Below, one piece after another: positions 1,311 through 7,097 of a stretch of DNA of 7,097 nt. The stretch is taken from IMG/VR virus record IMGVR_UViG_2778261064_000012; one strand, written 5' to 3'. The position numbers and the translations under genes are program-made. The notes beneath the pieces were generated by a model that worked only from the letters and a program-made list of their open reading frames with translations, searched no databases and had not been told where the DNA came from. Each line of letters starts with the position of its first letter. Within the stretch, counting starts at the first letter, position 1. The DNA is from a virus (taxonomy: Duplodnaviria; Heunggongvirae; Uroviricota; Caudoviricetes).

Positions 1311-1951
1311 TTGTCGGTATACCTCTCTCGTTTGCTCAGTTGTTCAGGAATATGGTGCAACAGCTCGCCGTCGCCGCAGTAAATGGCGGCATGATTCGGC
1401 ACCGATGAACCAAAACAGCACAGCAGCACATCGCCCGGCTGCGCCGCTGACAACGGCACCTGATACAGCCCTGTGGCCTCCAGATTATCCAGATAGAGAT
1501 TCTGACCGTTACGCCACCAGTCATCCTCGCGATGAAAATCCGGCATCTCAATCCCCGCCAGATGGTAAGCGTCCCGGAACAGCGTGTAACAGTCCGTCAC
1601 CCCGTGCTCAAAGCGCCGCCCGGTGAGATGCGGCACACAGCGGAACTTATGAATCGCCCCCCGGCAGACCAGCCACCACGGCAAATCACTCTGCACCTGC
1701 AGTCGCCGGTCGGCCTCACTCAGCCAGGGCAGACCACCGGGGTGGCTGTGCACCAGCGCCACAATCTCACCCTGCATTTCTGCCCGCAGCCAGTCCTCCG
1801 GCGACATCCGGAAATAATCCTCCGGCTCACCGGAGATATTCACGCAGGGAAAATATCTTTCCCCTTCCGGCGTTCTCACCACGAAGCCGCACGACTCCGC
1901 TGGCGCACATCGCCGGGCGTGCGCCAGAATCGCTGATTCTGTCTGTGTCAT
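1208..1951 (-). CDS. K: Tail assembly protein K (247 aa) with an N-terminal JAMM/MPN metallopeptidase-like domain and a C-terminal NlpC/P60-like domain
   Basis: ATG at 1951..1949, five nt after the L stop (TAA 1959..1957). The translation MTQTESAILAHARRCAPAESCGFVV... contains an exact JAMM signature H-S-H-x7-S-x2-D (VHSHPGGLPWLSEAD) preceded by a Glu-containing segment (PEGE), and a Cys/His-containing C-terminal half (VTDCYTLF ... HAAIYCGDGELLHH) consistent with NlpC/P60. Order and sequence match lambda gpK. Confidence 0.85.
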   Translation of the reverse strand: MTQTESAILAHARRCAPAESCGFVVRTPEGERYFPCVNISGEPEDYFRMSPEDWLRAEMQGEIVALVHSHPGGLPWLSEADRRLQVQSDLPWWLVCRGAIHKFRCVPHLTGRRFEHGVTDCYTLFRDAYHLAGIEMPDFHREDDWWRNGQNLYLDNLEATGLYQVPLSAAQPGDVLLCCFGSSVPNHAAIYCGDGELLHHIPEQLSKRERYTDKWQRRTHSLWRHRAWHASAFTGIYNDLAAASTFV

Positions 1952-2664: not shown

Positions 2665-2994
2665 CTATGCCACGACCTGTTCAAAATCTGCCGTTATGGT
2701 TACCCACAGCGCCCCCACGCTTGCCGACCATTTACGACAAACCACCCTAATCGGTTTCCAGTCATAAGGTGGCGTCCACTGAAATGCGCGGACGCCACCG
2801 TGCCGTTCCAGAAAGGCTTTTAAAGATGGGTGTTCACATTTACGAACACGTATCGTCACGCTGTAAATCGACAACTGGTTATTCAGTCCCGCCGCACGAC
2901 GCTGTTCATAACCATCGCCCAGCTTCACTGTCACCACTTTCGGCTCTGATACCACATTCATATCCGGGCGCACTTTCCAGTGAAACGTCTCCAT
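2665..2994 (-). CDS. M: Minor tail protein M (109 aa)
   Basis: ATG at 2994..2992 overlaps the H stop (TAA 2996..2994) as TAATG. The translation METFHWKVRPDMNVVSEPKVVTVKLGDGYEQRRAAGLN...FLERHGGVRAFQWTPPYDWKPIRVVCRKWS...ADFEQVVA resembles lambda gpM (M..F.WKV.P...GDGY.QR...GLN ... EFEQVV) but is clearly more divergent than L/K/I/J. Confidence 0.85.
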   Translation of the reverse strand: METFHWKVRPDMNVVSEPKVVTVKLGDGYEQRRAAGLNNQLSIYSVTIRVRKCEHPSLKAFLERHGGVRAFQWTPPYDWKPIRVVCRKWSASVGALWVTITADFEQVVA

Positions 2995-5900
2995 TACCGA
3001 TATGCTCCACTTAACCGACCACCATCACGGGCCTGCTGTTGCATAAAGTCCGCTGCCGCTTTTTTCCCAAGGTCATAAACCACCTTCAGGGCAGCCGGAC
3101 CTATCTGCCCGTTCGTGCCATCGTTATTGATCTCGATGTTGTACTGCGGGGCAAACATCGCCATACCTGAACCACCAATATCCGCCACAACCCCCAGCTT
3201 ACCGTCAGCACCACGACGCAGTGGCAGAATGGCTTCAGGTCCAGCTTCCCCCATCACACCCGCGCCTTTTGCAAAAGCAAAAAACGTCGGACGGTTAACC
3301 ACCGTGCCACTGTAGCGACTCAAATCAGCCGACTGATAAACACCGCCATCAGCATTGGCTACAAAATCAAAAGGCAGCGCGGAAGCAATGCCTTTTACCG
3401 CTTTCATTAAAGCTATCTGAGCCATGATTCTGGACATATCTGACAGCACAGAAGAGGTGAAGGATTTGAAATTGAGTTTGCCTGTAGTACAGAATGTCGC
3501 CAGCCAGTCACTCATGCTACTGAACGCAGACGTGAACAACTGTTCCACTGTCCCGGCTGTGTTATCCGCTTTCTCAGTGACATTCTGGAGTGCACGCAGG
3601 ACTCCGTTTTTCCAGTCACCCTGAGCAATTTCAAGCTGTTGCCAATAACGGCGATTCTCATTCAGTTGTCGGTTCAGGCTCTCCGTCAGCGCCTGCTCGG
3701 CCTTTCTGTAGTCATCCGTGTTATATGTCCCTTTCTGCTCACTATCCCGCCTCAACTGCTCCAGCTGTTGCTGGTATTTCTGGCGAAGACTCAGTTGTAC
3801 CTGATATCGCTGCCTCTGCTGATCACCCATACCCACCGTGGCGATATCCAGGTCATGTTGCTGACGCTGAGCGCGCTCTTCTTCAGCCAGTTGACTGGTC
3901 AGCTGAATTGTTTTTTTCTTCAGCTCGTTGAGTGCCGTCTGTTTCTGAAGCTCCTGCTGTTTTACATCCAGCAGCGTCAGTGCCTGAATCAGTTCATCTT
4001 TACGGGCCAGCACACTCTTTTCATCTGCCGTCAGTTTTTTCCCGTCCAGGTCGCTGATGCGCTGCTGCAGAGCCAGAAGCTGTTTATGCGCTTCTGTCAT
4101 CTTTTCAGTGGCAATGCCTGCTGACTGTCTTGCAGCAGCAATCTGCCCTTCCACCTGTGCCTGTTGCTGACTGTACTGCAGCAATAACCGGGTGGCCTCA
4201 TCATTACGGGTTTCGCGTGTTTTTTTCTTACCGGATGCCAGGGCTTTCTCGTAACGTTCATTTTCACGTTGTATCGCCGCATCCCTGACAGCCTGGTCGG
4301 CGTACTGCATGGCATTAATACGCGCAATTTCACGCTGATGTCGTGCTGCTTCCGTTTCATTCATCCGGTTCAGTGCAGCATTTTCAGCATTACGTCGTTT
4401 CTGTTGCTCCTGATAATTCCGCTCTGCCTGCTCTTTTGCATCCTGCAAATCCTTCTGGCGTTTTTTCTCCTGAAGATCGTTAAGACGCTGCTGATCGTAT
4501 TCAACCTGAGAAGATGATGCCGTCCAGGGGAGTCTTTTCGCCCGCGACACTTTCTCCTGTAAAGTGACAATCTGTTCATCCAGCGAGTCTTCACGACCAA
4601 TATTCATGGCCGCATCCCAGAAACGACTCCATAAATCAGACAGATACTTCAGCGTACTACCAAGCGCATTGAGGTTATTATCAATATCCGCAGTACGCCG
4701 ACCGGTTTCCTCTGCCAGTGCAGACATGGCTATCCGTGCAGCATCACTGGACCGTCCCTGCTCCCCAAGGACGCGTATCTGCTCAAGCTGAGTGGCAGTA
4801 AGAAAATGCAGCTCATTGTCCAGAGCCTTCGCGGCATTTACAGGATCATCCTTCAGCCGCTTAAACTGATTTATGGTATCGCTGACCGACTGGCCAACCG
4901 ATCGCTCCATCTGTGCGGCAGCTCTCGCCACCATACCGATATCGTTTCCACGAAATGCACCACTACCCACCACCTGAGCCAGCGCACCGGCTGCAGCATG
5001 TTGCGTGATACCATTCCCGGAAATAGCACGACTGAGCGTCCACAGCTGCCCGGCAGTGACTCCGGCATAATGCCCCGTCAGCGACAGCTGGCGGTTAAAT
5101 TCTTCCCCCTCCTTCTGACCGTCATACCAGGCTTTACCCAGACCATAGACAGCCGCGGCAATACCGCTAATAACCCCGCCAAGCATCATGCCTTTCGGTG
5201 ACATCAGTGTGTCTATCCACCCGGCACGGTTAGCCAGCGTTATCCCGGATCCCCTCAGCGCACCTAAATTGCCGCGGGCCAGTTCACCTATCAGAACGCC
5301 TATCTCCTGGCGGGCCGCTGCACTTTTCAGCCCCAGCGAATGCGTGGCTTTTCCTGCCTGCTCCATTTTGCGGATATACACTTCTGCAGCACTGCTTACC
5401 CCCAGCTGGGCAGCCTTAGCACGAAGCAACTCAGAAGAAGAAAGATTCTGGCGGGTTGCCTGCTCTTTAAGCTGACGGATAAACGCCACTTTCTGTCGGG
5501 TAGCCTCTTCCTCAGCCTGTGTAAGAACACGGGTTTTCGCCGTAACCTCAGAAATCAGCGCCAGATAATCCTGCTGACCAATCCCGCCACTGTTTCTGGC
5601 CTGTCGGATCTGCTGCTGAATACGCTGTAATTCCTGCAGACCCGCACTGGCCTGTTTCACACTGTCAATCTGACGATAAAACGCAGCAGCCGCTTTATCC
5701 TGAGCCTCCGCCAGAGCCATGGCCTGCGCCTGTTCCTCGCGCATTTTCTGGCTCAGCGCCTCCATGCGCTGGCGGGTTTTCTCCACCTCGCGGGCCATGC
5801 GTTCATGAGCCTGTGCGTTCTTCTCCACCGTCTGCGCATGGACGGATGCGGCTGTTGCAGCCGAAGACGCCGCCTGCGTTGTCTGCCGGGCGGCCTGAGT

Positions 5901-6050
5901 CTGACGCTCCATAAAACGCTGCATACGGGCAGAAGACCGTTCTGCATCGCTGGCTGCACCATTCAGAAGGTTTTTGATACGGGGGATTTCATTTTTAAAC
6001 TCTGCCGCATCAATCCCCAAATCAATGACCAGGTTGGCTATCTGGTCCAT
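2994..6050 (-). CDS. H: Tail length tape measure protein (1018 aa from the ATG at 6050)
   Basis: Single long minus-strand ORF. I place the start at ATG 6050..6048 (MDQIANLVIDLGIDAAEF..., aligning with the lambda gpH N-terminus MAEPVGDLVVDLSLDAARF), with GGAGG 8 nt upstream. The track's 1028-aa version begins at a TTG at 6080 inside T. It has long Ala/Gln/Glu/Arg-rich coiled-coil-like stretches, a hydrophobic Gly/Ala-rich segment (GMMLGGVISGIAAAVYGLGKAWY), and a lambda-type C-terminus (NNDGTNGQIGPAALKVVYDLGKK...RDGG). Confidence 0.9.
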   Translation of the reverse strand: MDQIANLVIDLGIDAAEFKNEIPRIKNLLNGAASDAERSSARMQRFMERQTQAARQTTQAASSAATAASVHAQTVEKNAQAHERMAREVEKTRQRMEALSQKMREEQAQAMALAEAQDKAAAAFYRQIDSVKQASAGLQELQRIQQQIRQARNSGGIGQQDYLALISEVTAKTRVLTQAEEEATRQKVAFIRQLKEQATRQNLSSSELLRAKAAQLGVSSAAEVYIRKMEQAGKATHSLGLKSAAARQEIGVLIGELARGNLGALRGSGITLANRAGWIDTLMSPKGMMLGGVISGIAAAVYGLGKAWYDGQKEGEEFNRQLSLTGHYAGVTAGQLWTLSRAISGNGITQHAAAGALAQVVGSGAFRGNDIGMVARAAAQMERSVGQSVSDTINQFKRLKDDPVNAAKALDNELHFLTATQLEQIRVLGEQGRSSDAARIAMSALAEETGRRTADIDNNLNALGSTLKYLSDLWSRFWDAAMNIGREDSLDEQIVTLQEKVSRAKRLPWTASSSQVEYDQQRLNDLQEKKRQKDLQDAKEQAERNYQEQQKRRNAENAALNRMNETEAARHQREIARINAMQYADQAVRDAAIQRENERYEKALASGKKKTRETRNDEATRLLLQYSQQQAQVEGQIAAARQSAGIATEKMTEAHKQLLALQQRISDLDGKKLTADEKSVLARKDELIQALTLLDVKQQELQKQTALNELKKKTIQLTSQLAEEERAQRQQHDLDIATVGMGDQQRQRYQVQLSLRQKYQQQLEQLRRDSEQKGTYNTDDYRKAEQALTESLNRQLNENRRYWQQLEIAQGDWKNGVLRALQNVTEKADNTAGTVEQLFTSAFSSMSDWLATFCTTGKLNFKSFTSSVLSDMSRIMAQIALMKAVKGIASALPFDFVANADGGVYQSADLSRYSGTVVNRPTFFAFAKGAGVMGEAGPEAILPLRRGADGKLGVVADIGGSGMAMFAPQYNIEINNDGTNGQIGPAALKVVYDLGKKAAADFMQQQARDGGRLSGAYR

Positions 6051-6372
6051 AACGCACACCTCCGGAAATACCTTCCCCAAGATGCATCAGTTCTTCGTCC
6101 GTTCGCTCCGGTATCCCGTTCTCTTCCGGTAAAAGGCTGAAATCAGCCACCGCAGCATCACTGCTGCCGGACACCATTCTCACGATCAATGCCTTCAGCG
6201 AGGCAAACTGCGCATCCATCCACACATCACTGAAGCTCTGCATCCGGAAATAATCGCCCCACTCACCAAGCTCAGTGGCCGACATTTCCGACAGCATCCG
6301 CCGCCAGTCTGCCCGCCGGAACTCCCGGGCAAGCCGCATGACAAACTGCATTTCCCGCGTCAGGACTTTTCC
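6022..6372 (-). CDS. T: Tail assembly chaperone T-frame segment, expected to be made only as a G-T fusion by -1 programmed ribosomal frameshift
   Basis: An ORF in the -1 frame relative to G, open from the T-frame stop at 6387..6385 through to TGA 6024..6022. It overlaps the last 8 codons of G and the first 29 nt of H. Position between G and H matches lambda T. The track lists only the part from an internal ATG (6351). The start coordinate is given at the putative slip site. Confidence 0.7.
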   Translation of the reverse strand, partial: GKVLTREMQFVMRLAREFRRADWRRMLSEMSATELGEWGDYFRMQSFSDVWMDAQFASLKALIVRMVSGSSDAAVADFSLLPEENGIPERTDEELMHLGEGISGGVRYGPDSQPGH

Positions 6373-6746
6373 GGCGTCAGCGCCTCATGCTCATCATCCC
6401 CGGCATTATCAATGGCCCCCATACCGCTCAGCGACAGAACCATCTCCGCCCCCGCACCCAGGGCATCATACGACCATGTTGTAATAACGGATGCGCAAAG
6501 CGTCTCTACATCCTTAGACTGATCCGCATTCCACAGTGAGCGGGAAACCAGCCAGGCATTGATATCCATCCCCATCCGCAGAAAAGCAATCTGTCGTTCA
6601 GCCTCCGGCAGTTCTCCCTCACCGGCATCAAACTTTGCCGTTCGCTGCTGAACAAACGCCAGATATTCAATTCTCTGCAGCCCGGACAGCTCACTGAGCA
6701 CCACGGACTGTTTTTCATAATTAAACGTGCCCTGTTTCAGAAACAT
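6360..6746 (-). CDS. G: Tail assembly chaperone G (128 aa from the ATG at 6746; a tandem ATG at 6749 is also possible)
   Basis: ORF ending at TGA 6362..6360. Two adjacent ATGs at 6749 and 6746 follow GGTGGAG; the second gives better SD spacing (6 nt) and the product MFLKQGTFNYEKQSVVLSELSGLQRIEYLAFVQ..., like the lambda gpG start MFLK. The track's longer version starts at a TTG (6788) that lies inside the upstream hairpin. Confidence 0.8.
   Translation of the reverse strand: MFLKQGTFNYEKQSVVLSELSGLQRIEYLAFVQQRTAKFDAGEGELPEAERQIAFLRMGMDINAWLVSRSLWNADQSKDVETLCASVITTWSYDALGAGAEMVLSLSGMGAIDNAGDDEHEALTPEKS
6366..6372 (-). other. Putative -1 programmed ribosomal frameshift (slippery) site for G-T fusion
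   Basis: The minus strand reads CTG ACG CCG GAA AAG TCC TGA in the G frame. The heptamer G-GAA-AAG (GGAAAAG) lies inside the only 22-nt window where the G and T frames are both open. Lambda uses G-GGA-AAG at the equivalent position. Confidence 0.6.
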
Positions 6747-6762
6747 CATGTTCTCCACCTGC

Positions 6763-6786
6763 AAAAAAGCCCCGGATAACCGGGGC
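6763..6786 (-). terminator. Rho-independent terminator-like hairpin between V and G
   Basis: The minus strand reads GCCCCGG-TTAT-CCGGGGC (perfect 7-bp GC-rich stem, 4-nt loop; plus 6769..6786) immediately followed by TTTTTT (plus A-run 6763..6768). It lies in the 60-nt V-G intergenic gap, and the G ribosome-binding site follows directly. Confidence 0.45.
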
Positions 6787-6806
6787 AAATGATGAGTATC
6801 GTCCTG

Positions 6807-7097
6807 TTAACCTGCAGCGCTGACAGTCACCGCAGCCACAGCCACAAAATTCCCGTCAGCGGTCATGCCCACAATGCTGACACTGCCCTGCTTCACGCCT
6901 TTCACCGTGGCCACAAGCCCGTTCAGGGTCACCGTGGCAGTCTGTGGATCTGACGAATGCACACTGATCGCTTTGTCACTGGCTCCGTCAGGTTTTACTG
7001 TAAAGGTCAGCGTGGTGGTTGTGTAACTTCGCGTTTTTTTCTGGGCTAATTGACGCGCAATTCCGGGCGGGGAGCGCGCAACCCAAAAGCCCAGAAT
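6807..7097 (-). CDS. V: Major tail (tube) protein V, C-terminal ~96 aa including an Ig-like (Big_2-type) domain; the CDS start lies beyond the window end
   Basis: The minus-strand frame is open from 7097 to TAA 6809..6807. My translation is ILGFWVARSPPGIARQLAQKKTRSYTTTTLTFTVKPDGASDKAISVHSSDPQTATVTLNGLVATVKGVKQGSVSIVGMTADGNFVAVAAVTVSAAG*, with the alternating Thr/Val/Ser/Ala beta-strand pattern typical of a bacterial Ig-like domain, as found at the C-terminus of lambda gpV. It is absent from the ORF track because it has no start codon in the window. Confidence 0.8.
   Translation of the reverse strand: MLGFWVARSPPGIARQLAQKKTRSYTTTTLTFTVKPDGASDKAISVHSSDPQTATVTLNGLVATVKGVKQGSVSIVGMTADGNFVAVAAVTVSAAG

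Follow-up and report, generated by a model that had tools for sequence, protein, structure and literature searches.

Genes and features around the V-G junction

The window, that is, the whole 7,097-nucleotide stretch of viral DNA analysed here, carries part of a lambdoid tail operon, and all of its genes lie on the minus strand. Read in the direction of the genes, it opens with the terminal 76 nt of a Mu-like prophage (7022-7097, minus strand), which end in ...CGCGAAGTTACA and interrupt the major tail protein gene V. Only the last 70 codons of V are left (6810..7021, minus strand), encoding an Ig-like domain (Pfam Big_2, E = 6e-8), and the TAA stop codon of the translated frame (6807..6809, minus strand), preceded by GCAGGT, aligns with the V stop of phage mEp460. 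Further along the same strand are the tail assembly chaperone gene G (6360..6749, stop codon 6362-6360), whose product matches Pfam Phage_TAC_2 from residue 1 (E = 2e-39), and the T reading frame (6022..6351; Pfam Phage_tail_T, E = 4e-15), the G-T frameshift partner, which is in the -1 frame relative to G. The tape measure gene H follows as a 1028-codon ORF (2994-6080, minus strand; TMP_2, E = 3e-49; Tape_meas_lam_C, E = 2e-23), which is listed from a TTG at 6080 and whose start overlaps T. Within 6022-6365 of the minus strand, G ends ...CCG GAA AAG TCC TGA, and a slip site here would differ from the GGGAAAG of lambda. Judged by ORF coordinates, the V-G gap of about 57-60 nt is the only sizeable non-coding stretch from V through I, since all other junctions either overlap or measure less than about 10 nt.

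The boundary inside V is sharp. In megablast comparisons, position 7021 is exactly where homology to phage V genes begins, while 7022-7097 is identical (100%) to prophage ends that adjoin, in other E. coli genomes, a truncated fliH or a truncated chbG. Every matched prophage end stops at the same ...TTACA, and unrelated target DNA comes directly after it. Prophages with the identical end carry tail-fibre and DUF4376 genes directly upstream of it; baseplate J/gp47, YmfQ and invertible tail-fibre genes precede a diverged copy of this end (87% identical). On these comparisons, 7022-7097 belongs to a transposable phage of the Mu-like kind, with insertion at random. The insertion in V at 7021/7022 was found in none of 5426 complete E. 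coli genomes. The original prediction had placed a hairpin directly after the major tail protein gene; its position past the V stop stands, but V itself is a 70-codon remnant cut at 7021/7022. Because so little of V is left, the lambdoid prophage is probably defective, and because V is disrupted, the copy of the hairpin in this genome is probably a relic. Read from the Mu-like right end, this hairpin is also the first terminator to be reached.

At the other side of the gap, the start of G needs a comment. G was aligned with the G of lambda, 21, phi80, Gifsy-1 and mEp237. It had been argued before that an N-terminal extension of G from a TTG is not real, and this is borne out: the TTG (6788-6786) overlaps the first base of the hairpin stem and has no upstream ribosome-binding site, all seven aligned G homologues begin with MFLK or MFLN at an ATG, and the match to Phage_TAC_2 already begins at residue 1 when the protein is started at the ATG. 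Between the two tandem ATG codons, the one at 6746 appears more likely to be the start than the one at 6749, because it is better spaced from GGAG, whereas the mEp460 record annotates the first ATG.

An intrinsic-terminator architecture in the V-G gap

The order of elements on the minus strand is the V TAA, CAGGACGATACTCATCATTT, the hairpin, TTTTTT, GC, AGGTGGAG, AAC and ATGATG (6749-6744). The hairpin (6769..6786), which can be read from the sequence and is recovered by both the terminator scan and the fold prediction, is composed of the arms GCCCCGG (6786-6780) and CCGGGGC (6775-6769) with the loop UUAU (6779-6776). All seven pairs of the stem are G-C, and UUUUUU (the T6 tract at 6763..6768, minus strand) runs from the first base after the stem. 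The stem begins 20 nt past the V TAA, in non-coding sequence and on the coding strand; from the size of ribosome footprints, this is probably beyond the melting reach of a terminating ribosome. The hairpin and U-tract end 2 nt ahead of the G ribosome-binding site AGGTGGAG (6753..6760, minus strand), which is conserved among relatives save for a few single-base variants. With its GC stem, short loop, U-tract and non-coding position past a stop codon, the hairpin plus U6 has the canonical architecture of an intrinsic (Rho-independent) terminator, set between V and G in a lambdoid tail operon of the cdtI/mEp460 type. Because a T-tract is missing from the plus strand at the hairpin, the terminator element is unidirectional. 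The original prediction had described a 7-bp GC stem with a 4-nt loop and six U, situated past the V stop and ahead of the G ribosome-binding site; the minus-strand sequence matches it exactly, the placement is correct, and the proposed span of 6747-6806 properly brackets the hairpin.

Fold prediction gives -15.0 kcal/mol for the hairpin alone and pair probabilities of 0.98-1.00 in 111-nt and 181-nt contexts, so that the stem is stable (pair probability at least 0.98), as had been supposed. When a 76-nt segment is folded, the hairpin is the entire centroid structure. The z-score of this whole segment is only -0.87, so that it is the local hairpin that stands out rather than any larger fold. 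A larger fold masking the G start was rejected, since its probability is at most 0.01 in the 111-nt and 181-nt contexts and it is absent in Gifsy-1 and Citrobacter.

How often such a structure arises by chance was estimated within the window. A consensus terminator scan found 11 terminator-like sites, against 6.6 +/- 3.0 in shuffled sequences, and generic scan matches therefore mean little. The hairpin ranks first among the 11 sites and is the only one with seven of seven GC pairs. When the whole 7.1-kb window was shuffled 400 times with dinucleotides preserved and both strands were scanned, only 3 shuffles gave any hairpin of -15 kcal/mol or lower followed by at least 5 T in 7 bases; this count was taken before demanding the correct strand or the correct 58-nt gap. 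The second-best site (1819-1836, minus strand; TCTCCGG-TGAG-CCGGAGG, then ATTATTT) is weaker and falls within the K-like coding region (1208-1951); such matches are expected by chance.

Among RNA families, the Rfam 15 covariance models gave no match anywhere in the window at E <=1. Pas sRNAs of EPEC have an intrinsic terminator and are located among phage structural genes. In prophage PP6 of EPEC strain E2348/69, PasB is antisense and sits between I and J, and the V-G gap measures 14 nt. A Pas sRNA (PasB) was rejected as an identity for the element, since no site in the window matches its probe sequence with 3 mismatches or fewer.

Terminators annotated in related phages

A terminator at the V-G junction is already known, because it is annotated in the public records of phages mEp460 and Ayreon. 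In mEp460 (JQ182728.1), positions 8751-8774, between the major tail protein and gpG-like genes, are annotated as 'rho-independent terminator', and in Ayreon (MF807953.1) positions 8742-8782 at the same locus are annotated as 'terminator'; both annotations are computational predictions as well. The mEp460 hairpin differs from that of the window by one base, a C to T change in the loop-closing pair that gives G.U. The flanking V and G genes of mEp460 are 96.9% identical to those of the window, but V is intact in mEp460 and truncated here. Apart from this truncation, there is no difference of substance between the window and the annotated terminators of mEp460 and Ayreon, which occupy the same locus. 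Megablast with the junction found 17 phage records at 96.7-99.8% identity, including cdtI, mEp460, Ayreon, Tritos, HannyBb and PhiR47_1, and matches in 1843 of the 5426 complete E. coli genomes.

Other terminators are annotated in mEp460 after the protease/scaffold gene, which is taken to be a capsid fusion, inside T, after J and after lom. The site after the protease/scaffold gene (mEp460 6310-6396) consists of two successive hairpins, GGCCCGTAAGGGC followed by T7, which is the annotated terminator, and then CAGCCCCTGAACGGGGCTG; it parallels the hairpin after the major tail gene. mEp460 also encodes a Q-like 'late gene regulator', mEp460_050, so that the cdtI/mEp460-type family has a Q-type late operon. 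The earlier caveat that a terminator would not necessarily stop transcription in a Q-antiterminated late operon was thus apt.

Conservation of the hairpin in close and distant relatives

Close relatives were represented by 80 IMG/VR loci with 24 junction haplotypes, whose G is 96-100% identical to that of the window. No substitution occurs in the lower six pairs, GCCCCG/CGGGGC, and 79 of the loci have them complete, the bottom C having been lost in the remaining one. Most loci close the loop with G-C, 15 with G.G, 7 with G.U and 4 with A.C. Besides this pair, the variation is found in the loop flanks, the 5' spacer and the ribosome-binding-site region, where changes are scattered. The T-run of these loci is 6-7 nt long, and T5-T7 covers all cdtI/mEp460-type haplotypes seen.

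Deeper comparisons are provided by Gifsy-1 (G 56-58% identical) and a Citrobacter prophage (G 56% identical), in which the DNA of V and G is about 70-73% identical to the window. All 12 arm bases of the lower six pairs are unchanged in both, the rest of the gap being unalignable, and the loops differ (GUUC and ACUC, respectively). The hairpin is kept in all 54 Gifsy-1-type loci. The U-tract is degenerate in both cases, as UUCUAU (TTCTAT) in Gifsy-1 and UUUGCGGG (DNA TTTGCGGG) in Citrobacter. The expectation that the hairpin would be conserved at V-G junctions of related prophages is therefore supported in the close relatives (79 of 80), Gifsy-1 and Citrobacter. In the junction alignments, no compensatory base changes were found inside any homologous lineage; the stems are invariant, so that there is no covariation statistic. 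Even so, the alignments indicate that the hairpin has been under purifying selection, and selection on structure is suggested because the arms are invariant while the loops vary freely, because the arms survive where the flanks are lost, and because unrelated hairpins recur at the V-G junction.

Two classes of V-G junction in lambdoid tail modules

The junction was surveyed in one genome per species together with reference phages, and two classes were recognized. Class A junctions, found in lambda/O276, 21, phi80, several Enterobacter prophages and E. albertii, have a gap of 9-23 nt and no hairpin. Class B junctions have a gap of 36-77 nt (236 nt in one Serratia locus) and always a GC-rich hairpin, although the hairpin sequences are unrelated. 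In Buttiauxella the hairpin is AGCCACAC-ACCG-GTGTGGCT followed by T6, in Serratia it is AAAAGCAGCG...CGCTGCTTTTTTT, and in Symbiopectobacterium two hairpins stand in tandem. These three unrelated lineages carry full T6-T7 tracts, whereas Atlantibacter (AGGGGGC-GTGA-GCCCCCT) and the mEp237/N15-type (CGGGGC-GAAA-GCCCCG) have the hairpin without a U-tract. The Buttiauxella contig (DASXXQ010000249.1), whose G is 42% identical, shares only a 38-nt match with the window and has its own V-G terminator hairpin, unrelated to that of the window.

The N15/mEp237-type set is composed of 80 loci with 33 junction haplotypes, in which G is 54-100% identical. Its arms CGGGGC/GCCCCG are invariant in all 80 loci around 12 different loops, and none has a U-tract. 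The hairpin of this type starts 2-4 nt past the V stop, where a terminating ribosome would cover it.

Lambda shares the order V-G-(G-T)-H and a homologous G (33% identity) with the window. However, the V-G gap of lambda, 21 and phi80 is 10-15 nt without a hairpin, in place of the 57-60-nt gap with a hairpin in the window. Since these phages and many Enterobacter prophages, with gaps of 9-15 nt, manage the same ratio of V to G and H without it, the hairpin is dispensable for the tail-assembly programme. A different arrangement was observed in the Stx2a phage Stx2a_JNE110649 (about 773-1000), in which the main V frame stops at TAAAAAAAG and a different frame, open for about 225 nt up to the G start, encodes the rest of the C-terminal Ig-like domain. 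From the sequence, the Ig domain may be added by programmed frameshifting on an A-rich slippery run, or the shift may be a sequencing indel.

Possible functions of the hairpin

Unmodified E. coli RNA polymerase terminates at sites made of a hairpin and a U-tract, while Q-loaded polymerase is termination-resistant and reads through terminators. Stable 3' hairpins are also known to block 3'-to-5' exonucleases. As for the dose of the products, each lambda tail takes about 190 copies of V but a handful of tape-measure molecules; the earlier statement on a far lower demand for the downstream proteins is safer when applied to the tape measure and G-T than when applied to G.

It is quite likely that the hairpin would terminate unmodified polymerase in vitro. 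On balance, the sequence comparisons favour a combined reading, in which the element would be an intrinsic terminator largely read through by Q-modified polymerase, and the hairpin would act as a leaky attenuator or a 3' decay barrier in favour of V mRNA. RNA polymerase without the phage Q modification would stop at the hairpin; it could come from stray transcription in the lysogen or, in this genome, from read-out of the inserted Mu-like prophage. Polymerase that comes from the late promoter and carries the Q modification would mostly read through, and attenuation may be negligible during lytic growth because such polymerase is termination-resistant. RNA ends left by residual termination or by downstream endonuclease cuts would then be shielded by the hairpin against 3'-to-5' exonucleases, so that the RNA segment ending in V would outlast and outnumber the segment of G, G-T and the tape measure. 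In lytic growth, the element would thus be a weak attenuator and, more importantly, a decay barrier enriching RNA that ends at V. The hairpin would be the conserved core of this device and the U-tract an optional addition. The hairpin can be regarded as the selected core because several lineages keep it without a U-tract, and termination may also be used where the tract exists, because T5-T7 is kept in the cdtI/mEp460 lineage and tracts are found in three unrelated lineages.

Some precedents are available. The T7 terminator T-phi after capsid gene 10 and the f1/M13 terminator after coat gene VIII are leaky terminators past the most abundant structural gene. Like these, the hairpin terminator of the window lies directly past a high-copy structural gene inside a longer operon, and partial read-through is expected. 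Unlike these, the family of the window uses host RNA polymerase made termination-resistant by a Q-like factor, so that attenuation may be minor. Intercistronic mRNA-stabilising hairpins are known from the malE-malF REP, Rhodobacter pufBA-LM and E. coli papB-papA, where the mechanism is a block of 3' exonucleases. In the window, too, a stable hairpin stands at the 3' end of a cistron needed in excess; however, it is a single copy and no REP repeat, in contrast to malE-malF. The U-tract-free N15/mEp237-type hairpins fit this stabilising model best. Leaky terminators that balance expression inside phage operons have been documented by full-length RNA sequencing (PMC9163698). A literature search gave nothing specific on experimental data for terminators after major tail genes in lambdoid late operons, and no in vitro, transcript 3'-end (Term-seq or 3' RACE), RNA-abundance or half-life data for this hairpin or its homologues.

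The closest alternative is that the hairpin is purely an RNA decay barrier or processing element, which would block 3' exonucleases after cleavage of the late transcript, with the U-tract being incidental. Hairpins kept with degenerate tracts in Gifsy-1 and Citrobacter, or without any in Atlantibacter and all 80 N15/mEp237-type loci, are what such a barrier predicts, and Q-modified polymerase, by established knowledge, would ignore a terminator anyway. Yet the T-run is held at 5-7 in every cdtI/mEp460-lineage haplotype seen, and the full T6-T7 of Buttiauxella, Serratia and Symbiopectobacterium suggests that the tract is selected where it is present; we therefore regard a barrier with no part for termination as unlikely. 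Less probable still is that the element works only in the prophage state, as an insulator: in lysogens it would shield the tail genes further on from stray or read-in transcription, started for instance at cryptic promoters upstream or in inserted elements, and it would have no role in lytic stoichiometry. The element is indeed a canonical terminator for unmodified polymerase, the late region of mEp460 has several of the kind, including around lom, and in the window it is the first one downstream of the inserted Mu-like prophage end. Insulation leaves unexplained, however, why unrelated hairpins repeatedly stand directly after the gene for the most abundant tail protein, and why conserved hairpins without a U-tract occur at the same junction. 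Overall, the comparative data lean to the hairpin, rather than termination, as the conserved function.

Two further explanations carry very little weight. A translational role, in which the hairpin would separate V and G translation (a block to re-initiation or coupling) or would mask the G start and so lower chaperone synthesis, is suggested by the gap of 57-60 nt, compared with 10-15 nt in lambda-type phages where coupling is possible, and by one minimum-free-energy fold (76 nt) that paired CAUCAU (6794-6789) with the G start AUGAUG. This outer helix, however, falls to a probability of 0.01 or less in longer contexts and has no equivalent in the Gifsy-1 or Citrobacter junctions, and the G ribosome-binding site lies outside the hairpin, so that a translational role would be most surprising. 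The same holds for a neutral leftover, or a DNA-level recombination linker at the module boundary with no RNA function: lambdoid phages are mosaic, and identical arms GCCCCG/CGGGGC do occur in lineages with diverged flanks, but the identities of V and G to the window co-vary over 89 loci with no sharp break at the hairpin, and invariant arms, free loops and unrelated hairpins at this site in other lineages point to selection on RNA structure. As a mosaic or recombination breakpoint, the hairpin is not supported by these 89 loci.

Beyond the combined reading of a leaky terminator and decay barrier, a wider proposal can be made tentatively. Directly after the tail-tube gene, GC-rich hairpins might have evolved repeatedly and independently in siphophage tail operons as a post-transcriptional device, which would set the ratio of V to G, G-T and the tape measure by RNA 3'-end protection and not by termination. 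We hold this general form to be possible though rather doubtful; if true, it would explain why the N15-type hairpin is conserved without a U-tract. In the U-tract lineages, the 3' end of V, whose hairpin and U6 make up an Hfq-type module, might further be set free as a stable small RNA derived from the 3' UTR.

Implications for lambdoid tail operons

By itself, the hairpin of the window matters little, as it confirms a predicted terminator already present in public annotations and corrects the start of G. The Mu-like insertion in V is of greater consequence for this genome than the hairpin. What the comparison adds is that V-G junctions fall into two classes, one tight and lambda-like and the other with a longer gap that always holds a GC hairpin, with or without a U-tract. 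Phages mEp460 and N15 are both culturable. The two junction classes offer an experimental handle on how Q-antiterminated late transcripts may be shaped post-transcriptionally into unequal protein doses.
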